Made by a program: the position numbers and the translations under genes. Positions 2,624-60,671 of a DNA stretch of 64,000 bases are shown here, piece after piece. Below the pieces are notes generated by a model. The model made no database searches. It was not told where the DNA came from and worked only from the letters and a program-made list of their open reading frames with translations. Positions within the stretch are counted from its first letter, which is position 1; each line of letters starts with the position of its first letter. The stretch spans positions 65,013 to 129,012 of the forward strand of contig CACYWW010000005.1 in NCBI GenBank assembly GCA_902778145.1, written 5' to 3'. The stretch is from an uncultured Ruminococcus sp. (GTDB taxonomy: Bacteria > Bacillota > Clostridia > Oscillospirales > CAG-272).

Positions 2624-3450
2624 TGTACGAGCTTTGTATCAACACGGGAACGGGCTTCGGCCTCGGGATCCCGGAGATGCTGCCGCATATAAAAGCCGCC
2701 GGTTTCGACGGCTTTTTCACGTCGTGGCACGAAGGCAAAACAAAAGAGATCGCCGCGTTGGCGGATAAACACGGACTTTTGTATCAGTCCGTTCACGCGC
2801 CGTTCAACGAGACGGACGCGCTCTGGGAGCCGGGCGACAAGGGTGAATACGTCAAGGAGACGCTCATCCGCTGTGTAAACGAGTGCAGGGACGCGGGCGT
2901 CCCGCGGATAATCATGCATACAGTGATCGGCATGGACCGTCATACGCCGACGGAGATCGGCTTGCAGAGATTCTGCCGGATAGTCAAACGCGCCGAGAAG
3001 ATCGGCATAGATATAGCGTTTGAGAACACGGAGGGCGCGGAATATCTCGCAGCGGTGATGGAGAGGTTCCGGTCGCTGTACGTCGGCTTCTGCTGGGATA
3101 CCGGGCACGAAATGTGTTACAATTACGGAAACGACATGACGGCGCTGTACGGCGACAGATTGAAATGCACACATCTCAACGACAATTTCGGCATGGCAGA
3201 CAGATCGGTCATGACGTGGCTCGACGACTCACACATGATGCCGTTCGACGGGACGGCTGACTGGCGGTCGATAGCGGACAGGCTCAACAGATGCGGTTAC
3301 CGCGGCGAGCTCACGTTCGAGCTTACGAGAAACAGCAAGCCCGGCAAGAACACGCACGACATATACGCAGGGCTCGACGTGGACGGTTTCCTGTCACTTG
3401 CATACGAAAAAGCCGTCCGATTCAGGAGAATGGCGGCTGCCGGATCATGA
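2623..3450 (+). CDS. sugar phosphate isomerase/epimerase (xylose-isomerase-like TIM barrel) family protein
   Basis: 'SVHAPF', 'IAFENTEG' and 'WDTGH' motifs fit AP-endonuclease-2/xylose-isomerase-like barrels. The start was moved to ATG 2623, which overlaps the trkH stop (taATG) and has GGAGGA 8 nt upstream. Confidence 0.7.
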   Translation: MYELCINTGTGFGLGIPEMLPHIKAAGFDGFFTSWHEGKTKEIAALADKHGLLYQSVHAPFNETDALWEPGDKGEYVKETLIRCVNECRDAGVPRIIMHTVIGMDRHTPTEIGLQRFCRIVKRAEKIGIDIAFENTEGAEYLAAVMERFRSLYVGFCWDTGHEMCYNYGNDMTALYGDRLKCTHLNDNFGMADRSVMTWLDDSHMMPFDGTADWRSIADRLNRCGYRGELTFELTRNSKPGKNTHDIYAGLDVDGFLSLAYEKAVRFRRMAAAGS

Positions 3451-8413: not shown

Positions 8414-8606
8414 TATAAAACCAAAGCCCCCGATCGCTCGGGGGCTTTTCAAACCTTTCTTACGGCGCGTGTGACGCGCCATTATTTTCTCTCATCCGGA
8501 CTTTACCGTCGGTGCAGGAGTTTCACCTGCTCGGCAGCTTGCGCTGTTAGTGGACTGTACCACCGGTTTGGAATTTCACCTGAGCCGTAAACGGCTCCCC
8601 CGAAAA
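8414..8606 (-). promoter_or_regulatory. FMN riboswitch (RFN element) with terminator-type expression platform
   Basis: The minus strand reads ...TTCGGGGGAGCCG...GGTGAAATTCCAAACCGGTGGTA.AGTCCAC...GCAGGTGAAACTCCTGCACCGACGGTAAAGTCCGGATGAGAG, which is the conserved RFN core. It is followed by hairpin AGCCCCCG/CGGGGGCT (8425-8446) plus a U-rich tract before ribU. Confidence 0.85.
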
Positions 8607-43347: not shown

Positions 43348-43489
43348 GAAAAAAGCGGAAAGAGAACGCCACGTGCGCCTGCGGAGGACCAGGCACGGAC
43401 GATAACGGAGCTTCGCAGGCAGCCCGTCCGTGTACGGCCCGGTACATCCCGTAATTATACGGGCTTTAAAGTCTTCTCTTTCCGTTTTT
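43348..43489 (+). other. inverted-repeat-bracketed structured spacer immediately upstream of the RT (candidate ncRNA)
   Basis: gAAAAAAGCGGAAAGAGAA (43348-43366) pairs with TTCTCTTTCCGTTTTT (43474-43489), 16 pairs with one bulge. The 107 nt between are GC-rich and contain hairpins, for example cccgta-atta-tacggg (43448-43463) and cacggacg/cgtccgtg (43394-43401 / 43425-43432). Confidence 0.35.
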
Positions 43490-43501
43490 ATATTTTTGAA
43501 A

Positions 43502-44689
43502 ATGTCACTGCTCGACAAGCTGAGAGATCCCGCAGTATGGGAAAAATTCTACGAATATAAATCCGGGCTCTCATGCCCCGGATCATACCTGAAGGAGCTG
43601 CGCGGCTTCATCGACCGGGCGGGTTATCTGCCCGTCTGCGATACGATCGATTCGGGCGGCGTTTTTCCGCTGCCGAAAAAAAGCGTTATAAGCAAGGTCG
43701 GCTCCGAAAAAAAGCGCACGGTCTACACGTACCCGGACGACGAGAACACGACCCTGAAGCTGCTCACGCATCTTCTCCTCCGCAGGTACGACGGACTTTT
43801 CTCCCCCGGCCTCTACTCCTTCCGTCCCGGAAGGACGGCAAAGGACGCGGTGCGGCGGCTGAGAAGGATTTCCCGCGGGATGTACAGCTATAAGACCGAC
43901 ATACACGATTATTTCAACTCAATACCGCTTGACAGATTTATCCCGCTTCTCCGCTCGGTGACCGGGGAAGACCCGCGTTTGTTCTCTTTCCTCTCTTCTC
44001 TTTTGCTTGAAAGCCGCGTGACAGACCGCGGCAGGGTGACGGAGGAACAAAAGGGGATCATGGCGGGAACGCCGCTGTCCGCGTTTTACGCGAATCTTTA
44101 CCTTTCGGAGCTCGACCGTCATTTCGACGGCGTACCGTACGCGCGGTATTCAGACGACATCATAGTCTTCGCAAAGGACAGGAACGAGCTTGACGGACAC
44201 GTTGAATACATAAATTCCGCGCTCTCCCGCGCGGGTCTCACGGTCAACCCGAAAAAGGAGACGTACGGGGAGCCGGACGAGGGCTTCGTTTTTCTCGGCT
44301 TCATCTGCTCGGACGGCGTGACGGACATCGCGCCGGTGACCGTTGTCAAGCTGAAGAAGAAAATGCGGCGCAAGGCGCGTTCGCTCGTCCGCTGGTACAA
44401 CAGGACGGACTCCGATCCGGAGCGAGCCGCCGCCGCTTTCATCCGTGTCTTCAACCGCAAGCTCCTCGACGACCCGCAGGGCAACGAGCTCTCCTGGAGC
44501 CGCTGGTTCTTCTCAGTCATAAACACGGACAAAAGCCTGCACGAGATCGACCTTTACGCTCAGGACTGTATACGGTACATAATATCCGGTTCGCGTAAAA
44601 AAACGCGCTTCCGTGTGACGTACGACGACATGAAGGCGCTTGGGTACAGAAGCCTTGTGCACGAATACCATAAGGATTCAAAATCATGA
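43502..44689 (+). CDS. stand-alone reverse transcriptase (RNA-directed DNA polymerase), class unresolved
   Basis: RT motifs are 'YSFRPGRTAKDA', 'TDIHDYFNSIP', 'GIMAGTPLSAFYANLYL', catalytic 'YSDDIIVFA', 'GLTVNPKKE' and 'GFVFLGF', followed by a ~130-aa basic thumb-like tail. The start is uncertain: ATG 43502 has no obvious SD, and GTG 43430 is the alternative. Confidence 0.85.
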   Translation: MSLLDKLRDPAVWEKFYEYKSGLSCPGSYLKELRGFIDRAGYLPVCDTIDSGGVFPLPKKSVISKVGSEKKRTVYTYPDDENTTLKLLTHLLLRRYDGLFSPGLYSFRPGRTAKDAVRRLRRISRGMYSYKTDIHDYFNSIPLDRFIPLLRSVTGEDPRLFSFLSSLLLESRVTDRGRVTEEQKGIMAGTPLSAFYANLYLSELDRHFDGVPYARYSDDIIVFAKDRNELDGHVEYINSALSRAGLTVNPKKETYGEPDEGFVFLGFICSDGVTDIAPVTVVKLKKKMRRKARSLVRWYNRTDSDPERAAAAFIRVFNRKLLDDPQGNELSWSRWFFSVINTDKSLHEIDLYAQDCIRYIISGSRKKTRFRVTYDDMKALGYRSLVHEYHKDSKS

Positions 44690-44783: not shown

Positions 44784-45638
44784 ATGAGATCATTTGACGG
44801 AAAAGAGCTTTACACATACCTTTGGGACGACGTGAAGGATCCGGTCGGAGTCGTACAGCTCTGCCACGGCATGTGCGAACATCTGGGCAGATACGACGGC
44901 TTTGCGCGGTTCCTCAATAAAAACGGATACATAGTTTTCGGTGACGACCACAGAAGCTACGGCAAAACGGACAACAACTCGGGCTACTGCGACGGCGAAT
45001 ACGTGGGCGACACGGTCAGAGACCTCGTATTCATAAACGAATACCTCAAGAAGGAATACGGTCTTCCTATCACGTTCATAGGCCACAGCTACGGAAGCGT
45101 ACTGGGTCAGAGGTTCGTACAGCTCAACACGGGGATAAAGAACGCCGTGCTTACCGGAACGCTGACGATACCGCACGCGCTCTGCCGTCTCGGACAGGGC
45201 GTCATGGCGCCGGTAAAGGCGATAGCGCCGCATGCGGGCGTCGCGCTTTCGAGCGCGAAATTCCCGGACGAGGACGAGGCACCGGATTCGTTCCTCACAA
45301 AGGATACGGAGATCAGACGTCAGTACGCCGAGGATCCGCTCTGCGGCGGAAAATCGTCGATGAGATATTACTACGGCTTTATAAAGCTGATGGGTGACGC
45401 GACAAAAAAGGCGAACGTCAAGGCGATCCCGGACAGTCTTCCGATAGGGATATTCAGCGGCAAAGACGACGGTATCGGGCATTTCGGCAAGGACCCGCGA
45501 AAGGTGTATGAGACGTACAAAAAGTACGGCAAGAACGCGTATCTGAAGCTCTACGAAAACGACCGGCACGAGATCCTGAACGAGACTGACAAGGATCGCG
45601 TGATGAACGACATCCTCGAATTCATAAAAAACAACTGA
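44784..45638 (+). CDS. alpha/beta hydrolase (lysophospholipase / monoacylglycerol-lipase-like)
   Basis: 'CHGMCEH' oxyanion region, nucleophile elbow 'GHSYGS', and C-terminal 'DRHEILNE' His. Start at ATG 44784 with GGGAGAAAG upstream. Confidence 0.8.
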   Translation: MRSFDGKELYTYLWDDVKDPVGVVQLCHGMCEHLGRYDGFARFLNKNGYIVFGDDHRSYGKTDNNSGYCDGEYVGDTVRDLVFINEYLKKEYGLPITFIGHSYGSVLGQRFVQLNTGIKNAVLTGTLTIPHALCRLGQGVMAPVKAIAPHAGVALSSAKFPDEDEAPDSFLTKDTEIRRQYAEDPLCGGKSSMRYYYGFIKLMGDATKKANVKAIPDSLPIGIFSGKDDGIGHFGKDPRKVYETYKKYGKNAYLKLYENDRHEILNETDKDRVMNDILEFIKNN

Positions 45639-46012
45639 AAAAAACGCGGTCTTGCGGTGTACTTCGTAAGGAAGTACACCGCAGCTAAATTCGCTTCGCG
45701 AGCTAAATTATGCTTCGCATAGCTAAATTCGCCTTGCGGCGAGCTAAATTGGGCTTCGCCCAGCTAAATTTGCTTCGCAAGCTAAATTCGGCTTTGCCGA
45801 GCTGAAAAAGGCGAATTTAGGGACAATTTAGCTATCGAACGCAGTGAGATAATTTAGCTGCGAGCAACTGCGAGCAATTTAGCTGTTTTCAAAATCATTC
45901 TTAATATCAAAGCGATTAGAACAAGCTGAAAGAGAATAACCCACTATAACACTTTCAATAATAGAAAGATGTCAGAGTGGGTTTGTTTCTTCCTTACGCA
46001 GCCTCTCCCTTG
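45638..46012 (+). repeat. composite structured repeat element, copy 1 (GNRA hairpin + opposed AGCTAAATT/mini-hairpin arrays + AT-rich tail + terminal hairpin)
   Basis: 12-bp hairpin gcggtgtacttc-GTAA-gaagtacaccgc (45654-45682). Six exact AGCTAAATT at 45683, 45701, 45721, 45742, 45762 and 45780. Three exact AATTTAGCT at 45825, 45851 and 45876. Terminal hairpin aacccact.../...agtgggtt plus a T-rich tract (45938-45993). Confidence 0.9.
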
Positions 46013-46022
46013 CCGCGTTTTT

Positions 46023-47699
<1,677 letters not shown>

Positions 47700-60183: not shown

Positions 60184-60604
60184 AAAAAACGCCGACTTGC
60201 GGTGTACTTCGTAAGGAAGTACACCGCAGCTAAATTCGCTTCGCGAGCTAAATTATGCTTCGCATAGCTAAATTCGCTCCGCGAGCTGAATTCGGCTTCG
60301 CCGAGCTTGCAGGCAAATTTAATTTAGCTGAAGCCGTGAGGCTTCAATTTAGCTATACGCCGACAGGCGTATAATTTAGCTGCCGCAAAGCGGCAATTTA
60401 GCTGCCGCAAAGCGGCAATTTAGCTATCGATGGCAGTGAGATAATTTAGCTGCGAGCGACTGCGAGCAATTTAGCTGTTTTCAAATTCATTCTTAATATC
60501 AAAGCGGTTAGAACAAGCTGAAAGAAAATAACCCACTATGACACTTTCTCTATTCGAAAGATGTCAAAGTGGGTTTGTTTCTTCTTTACGTCGCCTCTCC
60601 CTTC
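60184..60604 (+). repeat. composite structured repeat element, copy 2
   Basis: Same 12-bp GNRA hairpin (60199-60227). Three exact and one 1-mismatch AGCTAAATT (60228, 60246, 60266, 60284). Seven exact AATTTAGCT (60321, 60346, 60373, 60395, 60417, 60443, 60468). Same AT-rich tail and terminal hairpin plus T-tract (60530-60588). Confidence 0.9.
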
Positions 60605-60671
60605 CGGCAAATTTTTGCGCCGGACGTATGATAAATATTTTCAATACGGGCAAGTTTTTTTTGAAATACTA

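Follow-up and report, generated by a model that had tools for sequence, protein, structure and literature searches.

What kind of element lies behind two modular repeat arrays in the genome of an uncultured Ruminococcus sp.? The stretch of DNA that we analysed, called the window throughout, comprises 64,000 nucleotides of contig CACYWW010000005.1 (assembly GCA_902778145.1). An earlier note, made from these letters alone, had described in it a repeat of conserved ends and variable module number, present in two directly oriented copies. Our results suggest that both copies are probably internally deleted derivatives of a small mobile element, which carry no open reading frame (ORF), resemble miniature inverted-repeat transposable elements (MITEs) and are inserted in the loops of terminator hairpins. 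The parent system seeks hairpin loops, has clade-specific arrays and possesses a protein of the S23p/Avd family as its sole conserved gene; it appears to be undescribed.

Copy 1 spans positions 45654-46011 of the window (358 nt) and copy 2 positions 60199-60603 (405 nt, counting its 2-nt duplication). Alignment confirms that they are directly oriented copies of one element. The 29-nt head hairpin is identical in both, the first two forward modules are the same verbatim, the last two reverse modules are held in common, and the AT-rich tails are ~90% identical over ~125 nt, much as the earlier note had described. Both copies are built around a 9-nt linker, which reads AGCTAAATT in the forward arm and, as the complement, AATTTAGCT in the reverse arm. 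Exact matches to AATTTAGCT and its complement number 19 in the window, the count given before, where 0.36 would be expected by chance, and all of them fall within 45683-45884 and 60228-60476. The module numbers were also right on recount. Copy 2 has three exact and one degenerate forward linkers and seven reverse linkers, and copy 1 has six exact forward linkers, a split linker-like centre, and three exact and one degenerate reverse linkers. The exact 22-nt tandem duplication reported for copy 2 is present as well (60373-60394 equals 60395-60416). The predicted folds of both copies are far more stable than those of shuffled controls (z -7 to -10). Neither copy has any coding capacity, and an ORF at 45969-46391, which overlaps copy 1, runs antisense into pyrG and is taken as spurious.

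Evidence that the copies are recent insertions comes from alleles that lack them. Copy 2 occupies the gap between a dockerin protein gene and rimP, which are divergent, and copy 1 that between an alpha/beta hydrolase gene and pyrG, a convergent pair; these flanking genes had been named correctly before. The rimP site is empty in many public contigs that encode exactly the rimP of the window. Their dockerin-rimP spacer measures 326-327 nt, against 731 nt in the window, and outside the insertion the alignment of the empty alleles (L119-L128) is ~99% identical. The empty allele reads AAAAAACGCCGA-CTT-CCGGCAAATTTTT and the filled window CTT-GCGGTGTAC...CCTCTCCCTT-CCGGC. The left half of this host target (60184..60198, plus strand) consists of an A-run, the stem half CGCCG and the loop bases ACTT, of which the TT at 60197-60198 is duplicated. 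The right half (60604..60616, plus strand), with the stem half CCGGC and a T-run, is present in the empty alleles. At the other site the left half of the bidirectional hydrolase/pyrG terminator lies at 45638..45653 (plus strand; A-run, CGCGG, loop TCTT) and the right half at 46012-46023. This site is empty in L148, which reads AAAAAACGCGG-TCTTG-CCGCGTTTTTT (CGCGG-TCTTG-CCGCG), and in L143 and L146, where the stem is the same and the loop is TTCGG. Contigs that are empty at either window site have flanks ~99% identical to those of the window; an exact look-up of the window's pyrG sequence returned no record.

The presence/absence polymorphism and target-site duplication that the earlier note had proposed to look for are thus both found, with empty alleles at the two sites and a duplication of 2 bp. 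The extent of the element had to be corrected. The flank aaaaaacgc.g.cttgc, which had been counted as part of it, occurs in the empty alleles and is therefore host sequence outside the element, namely the A-run, the left half of the stem and the loop of a terminator-like hairpin, so that the span of 60184-60604 shrinks to a true insertion of 60199-60603. The statement that the copies do not bound an island is upheld, and their flanks are unrelated save for the similar terminators.

In L145 the hydrolase/pyrG site is filled (1312-1700), with a module set that differs from the window's and a tail that resembles that of copy 2. Among near-identical strains this loop is seen in three allelic states, namely empty with TCTTG, empty with TTCGG, and filled, the filled variants of the window and L145 being different. 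Such different variants at one loop imply either repeated insertion at the same site or conversion between copies. They also agree with the earlier proposal that the arrays expand and contract while the ends are constrained, since the modules differ and the head hairpin and tail are conserved.

Other members of the family likewise lie within an inverted repeat that is specific to the site and accompanied by an A-run and a T-run. The left and right stems read GCAGCC and GGCTGC in L111, GGACCGC and GCGGTCC in L077, ATCCCGCA and TGCGGGAT in L084, CCGCCTCA and TGAGGCGG in L096, GCGTC and GACGC in L166, and CCCGC and GCGGG in L159. The duplication has a length of 2 bp, since two bases match at both ends and the third is mismatched, and was found at nine independent sites. 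Only the five sites with a sequence other than TT are diagnostic (TC in L077, TA in L032, L166 and L242, GC in L159), the other four being TT. When the RNA fold of copy 1 is predicted, both stem halves of the host terminator close around the whole element.

The modules themselves follow a consistent grammar. From at least 118 loci we collected 297 distinct spacers between consecutive linkers, and 63% of them form perfect end-to-end hairpins, compared with 3% of shuffled spacers. The stems vary in sequence from module to module yet stay paired, and the linker is invariant. Some of the less obvious spacers are hairpins with tandem G.A pairs (gcgagc-N4-gcgagc, atcgaacgcagtgagat). On the AATTTAGCT strand the loops are GNA triloops and GNNA tetraloops (GAA 35, GCA 18, AAA 16, GTAA 10, GTCA 8 and similar others), and TTC was never observed. 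Single stem mismatches on this strand are G.T in 20 cases and A.C in five, and the signal is specific to the arm. The asymmetric centre AGCT-N7-12-AAATTT allows the elements to be oriented, and the structural strand then proves to be minus in the left arm and plus in the right, so that the arms face away from the centre and no single transcript carries both in good form. Such two-fold symmetry is expected for symmetric protein-DNA half-sites or transposon ends, and is awkward for one transcript.

The two copies are far from the only ones, in line with the dispersed family that the earlier note had postulated. A scan of one-genome-per-species bacterial genomes for a pattern of three linkers matched at least 118 stretches, with at least 115 array clusters outside the window. 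At least 108 loci are genuine arrays, all of them from rumen or gut Clostridia among the matches listed, and the carriers, many of them metagenome-assembled genomes (MAGs), include Ruminococcus, Oscillospiraceae, Faecousia, Ructibacterium, Acutalibacteraceae and Congzhengia. One MAG often has several array loci, and the matches often lie at contig ends. The linker arrays are the widely conserved part of the element, and the window-type head and tail were found in only ~10 close relatives. Ten non-Clostridial matches are tandem repeats of another kind without hairpin spacers. In three Bacteroidota MAGs (L026, L028, L065) the 9-mer happens to be contained in another kind of repeat, a 14-nt palindrome AATTTAGCTAAATT that recurs every 31-33 nt with non-hairpin spacers. 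Viral contigs from IMG/VR gave 14 pattern matches, and genuine AATTTAGCT hairpin arrays occur in L135 (10245-10291) and L141 (260-306). The other twelve were rejected as unrelated tandem repeats, among which L139, with one of its two spacers a hairpin, is perhaps real. The range of array expansion can be seen in one-armed extremes with 13 reverse units in L041 (3626-3876), eight forward units in L024 (2554-2740) and 16 reverse units in L184 (2925-3240), which are built of a few alternating module types.

Clustering of the ORFs in the at least 118 array loci identified, besides an ABC (ATP-binding cassette) transporter, a single recurrent family, a protein of 113-122 aa found in nine different MAGs. 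Its gene lies 25-110 nt past the reverse arm, always in the same orientation. The protein belongs to PF05635 (23S_rRNA_IVP, E 1.8e-28) and TIGR02436 ('four helix bundle protein', E 7.7e-33); the L050 protein scores 99.3 bits in Pfam (cut-off 33.8) and 113 bits against TIGR02436 (cut-off 24). Its nearest solved structure is PDB 2RLD (E 4e-31). The entries 2RLD and 2GSC have five chains each, and the Xanthomonas S23p has been reported as a toroidal homopentamer (PMC4990558). A PF05635 gene or fragment is near ~11% of the genuine array clusters, the remainder being gene-less.

The association also holds when approached from the protein. A metagenome scan yielded 80 loci, and almost all close homologues of the partner protein adjoin AGCTAAATT and then AATTTAGCT arrays, typically with four plus four linkers. 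More distant protein clades have the same layout with a different linker: a terminator, often that of a tRNA gene, is followed by a forward arm with TTC-type loops, the centre, a reverse arm with GNA loops, and the gene. The linkers of these clades include AGTGATAT, ATATAACT, ATGATAT, TGATATT, ATGAAAT, GTGAAAT, GGTAAAT, AGCGATGT, TGAAATA and GTTCCCG, and the relation between linker and protein clade is nearly one-to-one. In L183-L185 the two arms enclose the gene. Among the protein-side loci no further gene is a consistent neighbour. In the literature we found no description of arrays tied to PF05635, TIGR02436, S23p or Avd genes, or of their mobility, although an earlier description elsewhere is possible, and searches for the 9-mer itself returned only primers and the like.

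Full-length elements tie the gene-less copies to this gene. The longer end motif located six of them (L166, L162, L159, L163, L165, L242), while the shorter inner end motif gave mostly noise. They consist of a window-type head hairpin, the arms, the centre, the PF05635 gene, and a window-type tail and right end, and the tail of copy 2 is homologous to their 3' end. When copy 2 is aligned with L166, the modules gaagccgtgRggcttc, atacgccgacaggcgtat and gccgcaaagcggc are found in both with their order kept. These are the first three modules of the copy 2 reverse arm, and ~860 nt of L166 that hold its genes are absent from copy 2. Both ends lie on the contig in L166, L159 and L242, which are located inside hairpins of the A-run/stem...stem/T-run type and show 2-bp duplications. 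The junctions of L162 disagree (TC vs TA), so that this contig may be a chimera or have arisen by recombination. The contig L242, of 48 kb, comes from a close relative of the window organism. Its hydrolase is in the same 90% cluster, and it has the same convergent hydrolase/pyrG pair with a 75-nt spacer that lacks such an insertion. A second ORF of 148 aa (ORF2), the start of which overlaps the PF05635 stop, is found in L162 (2875-3321), L163, L166, L242 (3360-3806), L243 and L244; it is cut by the contig end in L245-L246, internally deleted in L159 and absent from L165. ORF2 has no match in Pfam, NCBIfam, PDB or PADLOC, and only weak matches to pyroglutamyl-peptidase I (E 0.07) and to phrog_7915 (E 0.002), which is of unknown function.

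The anatomy of the window copies can be described in the same terms, with all features on the plus strand. Copy 2 begins with the head hairpin (60199..60227), GCGGTGTACTTC-GTAAG-GAAGTACACCGC, which is 29 nt long and the same in copy 1 (45654-45682). In relatives it is 95% paired, and four pairs show compensatory change. The first 21 nt of this hairpin are the left imperfect terminal inverted repeat. Between GCGGTGTACTTCGTAAGGAAG and the reverse complement of the right end of copy 1 (45989-46009), GGGAGAGGCTGCGTAAGGAAG, 14 of 21 positions agree, with poor agreement at the outermost bases. The inner motif CGTAAGGAAG agrees there at 10 of 10 positions, and at 9 of 10 within copy 2. In the forward arm of copy 2 (60228..60303) the linker AGCTAAATT starts at 60228, 60246 and 60266 and the degenerate AGCTGAATT at 60284. 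After each of them comes a mini-hairpin whose loop reads TTC or TCC on the plus strand and GAA or GGA on the minus strand. Next comes the centre (60304..60320), AGCT-TGCAGGC-AAATTT, a split linker whose position is kept in nearly all two-armed elements and which gives the element its polarity. The reverse arm (60321..60476) has the seven AATTTAGCT linkers, includes the tandem duplication and contains hairpins with the loops GTGA, GACA, AAA and GCA, two of these hairpins having tandem G.A pairs. The tail (60477..60601) is an AT-rich stretch with a long hairpin at 60530-60575, which has T-rich runs after it on both strands, and the right imperfect inverted repeat at 60581-60601. It is followed by the second TT of the target duplication (60602..60603), where the empty site has a single TT. 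In copy 1 the six forward linkers run from 45683 to 45788, the centre occupies about 45800-45824, the reverse linkers start at 45825, 45851 and 45876 with a degenerate one at 45814, the tail hairpin is at 45938-45983, and the TT duplication at 46010-46011 follows the right end.

The layout seems to extend beyond the Clostridia. Bacteroides PF05635 genes of the 2RLD type (L232-L237) lie in short operon spacers, for example between araD and araA or between an aminotransferase gene and the 3-deoxy-D-arabino-heptulosonate 7-phosphate (DAHP) synthase gene. They are flanked by inverted 7-mer arrays without hairpins, (TTGACAA)n upstream and (TTGTCAA)n downstream, whose repeat number differs between strains. 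In related Bacteroides (empty junctions L238, L241) araA follows directly after araD. This insertion pattern implies that the order of arm, gene and inverted arm is general for the PF05635 family.

How might such elements move? We tentatively propose that PF05635 proteins are the element-encoded synapsis or mobility factors of an unrecognised class of small elements, whose ends are inverted arrays of protein-specific short repeats, to which the Clostridia would have added extrudable mini-hairpins; we regard this as a possibility that falls short of being probable. The elements would then target stable hairpins at the loop or the foot, in places such as terminators, the 3' flanks of tRNAs, operon spacers and helices of 23S ribosomal RNA (rRNA). 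In the explanation that we prefer, and hold to be somewhat more likely than not, the arms would be multivalent, two-fold-symmetric binding platforms for the cognate PF05635 protein, with each unit of linker and hairpin being read in its single-stranded or extruded form. A protein sitting on both arms would bring the ends of the element together. Cutting and joining at the target hairpin loop might be an activity of the element, through the PF05635 protein or ORF2, or of a host or trans-encoded enzyme. Gene-less copies would use PF05635 protein supplied in trans, and their module numbers may drift as modules are duplicated in tandem or deleted, since nothing more than the ends and a minimum number of modules would be required. 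Insertion may be tolerated because the element has its own two-way terminator-like hairpin and the host stem is able to re-form around it.

Several observations weigh against this explanation. There is no PF05635 or Avd-family gene in the 64-kb window. Many gene-linked arrays, including L045, L050, L154, L155, L168, L170, L173, L196 and L220, do not lie in a loop: their forward arm begins right after the T-run of a complete terminator (...TTTTTC/AGCTAAATT), often that of a tRNA gene. These arrays imply either a second target mode, and hence a non-uniform target rule, or that the terminator belongs to the element and serves as its head hairpin. ORF2 could be a passenger or a real effector or enzyme in the window's lineage. 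The counts of stem mismatches for each arm are small (5:1 and 6:0). The remaining points on this side also favour one of the rival explanations and are given with them.

The main rival is an ordinary MITE that is moved by a conventional transposase of the DDE (Asp-Asp-Glu) type encoded elsewhere, the arrays and the four-helix-bundle gene being passengers, for example a self-regulated DNA-binding protein that a transposon acquired together with its operators. We consider this unlikely, although it is the explanation that survives best beside our own proposal. Imperfect 21-nt inverted ends and a 2-bp duplication are what such a transposase leaves, and PF05635 has no known catalytic or sequence-specific nucleic-acid-binding activity. 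Operators would also fit the finding that at several loci a -10-like box is overlapped by the last linker, or the array is followed by a clear promoter. However, no transposase was found in the ~200 related loci that were scanned, five full-length elements included. In other variants and in Bacteroides, inverted arrays stand on either side of the gene as transposon ends do and enclose nothing more, and the array architecture follows the protein across clades that have different ends.

Somewhat less likely again is that the element is chiefly a structured non-coding RNA of the Gut-1 type, located in a 3' untranslated region or a tRNA-operon spacer, with mobility being secondary. It might serve as a multivalent sponge or scaffold for the protein, stabilise 3' ends, or act as a terminator or insulator in both directions. 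Gut-1 entered the literature as an orphan non-coding RNA known solely from human gut metagenomes (Weinberg et al. 2010, PMC2864571). Its covariance model (RF01706) matches the window at 60227-60297 on the plus strand with 31.1 bits and E 2e-4, against a gathering score of 50. Rfam thus gives no match on the element at the gathering threshold and only this weak one at an E-value threshold. The likeness is nevertheless one of construction, since in Gut-1 a short constant linker (GUGAAAU) alternates with at least three variable hairpins, whose loops read YUUCR on the strand that is modelled. It is also one of setting. Bona fide Gut-1 matches (50-77 bits, with GTGAAAT and ATGAAAT arrays) lie directly upstream of PF05635 genes of sister clades (L213, L214, L216, L230, L211, L203, L219), the same place beside these genes that the AGCTAAATT arrays occupy. 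The linker differs, and Gut-1 was published without gene association, reverse arm or mobility. The element is therefore built like Gut-1 and found in the setting of true members, yet it is no Gut-1 member by the Rfam criterion.

Two loci show how Gut-1-type arrays can be arranged. L082 has true Gut-1 arrays at 1439-1526 and 2057-2137, which flank a small gene with its own strong promoter that looks antitoxin-like by eye, and a AGCTAAATT array at 3162-3340, so that one genome can hold several linker families. In L230 a 23S-5S rRNA operon has two Gut-1-type arrays downstream of it (883-957 and 1165-1240). The first, which has no gene, is located between two tRNA genes with no terminator before it, and the second is followed by the PF05635 gene.

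The sub-threshold match counts for the RNA explanation, and Rfam curators read Gut-1 as RNA. The strong covariation of the stems and the G.U excess count for it as well; a preference for G.T over A.C suits RNA as much as DNA. The first array of L230, having no preceding terminator, must be co-transcribed with the tRNAs. The stability of the folds and the host terminator stem closing around copy 1, which would keep the terminator working, fit an RNA too. Avd binds RNA in diversity-generating retroelements (DGRs), which likewise favours this explanation. 23S intervening sequences, which are self-closing as well, act at the RNA level (PMC4990558).

Several other observations argue against it, and for the active form of the element we lean slightly towards DNA, extruded or single-stranded, rather than RNA. 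The two arms have opposite structural strands, and most gene-linked arrays are preceded by a terminator and followed by the promoter of the gene itself. The genes on either side of copy 2 are divergent, and no promoter-like site was found upstream of the element or inside it. Promoter and terminator scans of both copies gave only rimP's own promoter, downstream of copy 2, and sites at chance level, and no convincing promoter was seen by eye in the element centre. Hairpins are entirely absent from the Bacteroides arrays. GNA triloops closed by C:G, typical of DNA mini-hairpins, are reportedly very stable as DNA, rather than RNA, according to Hirao and colleagues. The parallel with the hairpins of DGRs points in the same direction (PMC3240598).

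It is very improbable that the copies are repeats like repetitive extragenic palindromes (REPs) or bacterial interspersed mosaic elements (BIMEs), moved by a REP-associated tyrosine transposase (RAYT; HUH, Y1), the type of partner that the earlier note had suggested. Their intergenic location, their variable number of units and the occurrence of hairpins in either orientation would fit, and the strand-specific signals would suit an enzyme that acts on single-stranded DNA. But REP hairpins are conserved in sequence within a genome and have a 5' GTAG, whereas here the stems all differ, the linker is constant and there is no GTAG. To our knowledge HUH elements make no target duplication or inverted ends, both of which we observe. 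No HUH gene was found among the neighbours of the ~200 related loci; the gene found instead is that of the PF05635 four-helix-bundle protein. A segmental duplication or chance repeat, for which nothing speaks beyond the existence of two copies, can be practically discarded in view of the unrelated flanks, the empty alleles with precise junctions at both sites, the 19 9-mers against 0.36 expected and the more than 100 loci in other genomes.

A comparison with known systems shows what a mobile element with PF05635-bound arrays would share with them. The copies have several features of MITEs, being short (358 and 405 nt), gene-less and multicopy, with insertion polymorphism and a target-site duplication, but the full-length partners (L166, L162, L159, L242) encode only the PF05635 protein with or without the 148-aa ORF. 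The pneumococcal BOX is a modular repeat of boxA-boxBn-boxC. Like BOX and MITEs, our element is short and intergenic, with conserved ends, a variable module number and a longer gene-bearing relative, a resemblance to BOX that is one of architecture. It differs from them in targeting a hairpin loop and in having modules composed of a linker and a hairpin with strand-specific loops. IS1397 and ISKpn1 are a precedent for insertion into the loops of palindromes, namely REPs, but their IS3-type gene was not found here. The subterminal arrays of eukaryotic foldback, CACTA and Ac/Ds elements offer an analogy, as these likewise have two inverted arms of short protein-binding repeats in unequal numbers and deletion derivatives that keep the arms; they belong to another domain of life, use other enzymes and have no hairpin spacers. 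Palindrome-associated transposable elements (PATEs) have subterminal hairpins, no inverted ends and no duplication, and insert 3' of a fixed tetranucleotide. We rejected an IS200/IS605-derived PATE, since terminal hairpins are present but so is a site-dependent 2-bp duplication.

The closest parallels through the protein are the 23S rRNA intervening sequences and the DGRs. Intervening sequences with an S23p ORF, as in Coxiella and Leptospira, lie in helices 25 and 45 and are excised by RNase III (PMC4990558). They too are insertions in the hairpin loop of a structured transcribed region with complementary ends, PF05635 as the sole gene and a sporadic, selfish-looking distribution, but no hairpin arrays or target duplication have been described for them. 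That the window copies are themselves such sequences is ruled out, both being gene-less and located in mRNA intergenic terminators. DGR targets need a DNA hairpin or cruciform with a GC stem free in sequence and a sequence-specific 5'-GRNA loop, which forms in supercoiled DNA (PMC3240598). The likeness lies in Avd, which is of the same fold family, and in a strand-specific G..A hairpin loop, which Avd may contact in DGRs. The element is not part of a DGR: the window has no template/variable repeat pair and no Avd-family gene, and the nearby reverse transcriptase is unlinked. Three further candidates were dropped: a CRISPR-like array (clustered regularly interspaced short palindromic repeats), as the repeats are 9 nt long and the 'spacers' palindromic; a cluster of DnaA boxes or iterons, as the spacing is unphased and the spacers are hairpins with strand-specific loops; and a group IIC intron, as no intron-type domains were seen on reading and nothing on the element matched a group II intron in Rfam.

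The reverse transcriptase is encoded just upstream of the hydrolase gene. An RT-5 RNA (RF03026, 87.7 bits; 43373-43477, plus strand) runs into its 419-aa ORF (43430-44689, plus strand), which matches RVT_1; the best NCBIfam match is to a group II intron reverse transcriptase/maturase, far below the cut-off, with weak matches to Drt3a and Drt2. A link of this gene and the RT-5 RNA to the element was rejected, because the same reverse transcriptase and hydrolase pair lies beside the empty allele in L143. The window also contains a flavin mononucleotide (FMN) riboswitch (RF00050, 80.8 bits) at 8480-8596 on the minus strand.

The PF05635/TIGR02436 family is very large and includes solved structures, and we know of no function for it outside DGRs. 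Here it is found together with Gut-1, an orphan RNA motif since 2010, and each protein clade has its own linker. The mobility proposal, if true, would unite Gut-1, the 23S intervening sequences that carry an ORF, the orphan genes for a 'four helix bundle protein', which number in the thousands, and the gene-less copies. Empty and filled alleles, the 2-bp duplication, and the full-length and deleted forms provide a handle on the question of how S23p intervening sequences arrived in hairpin loops. The design of the arrays, in which structurally identical but sequence-diverse hairpins alternate with an invariant linker and carry strand-specific GNA loops, is a principle for multivalent nucleic-acid platforms. 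For the rumen and gut Clostridia that carry them, these elements break short-read assemblies, and they alter terminators beside core genes such as pyrG and rimP-nusA-infB.

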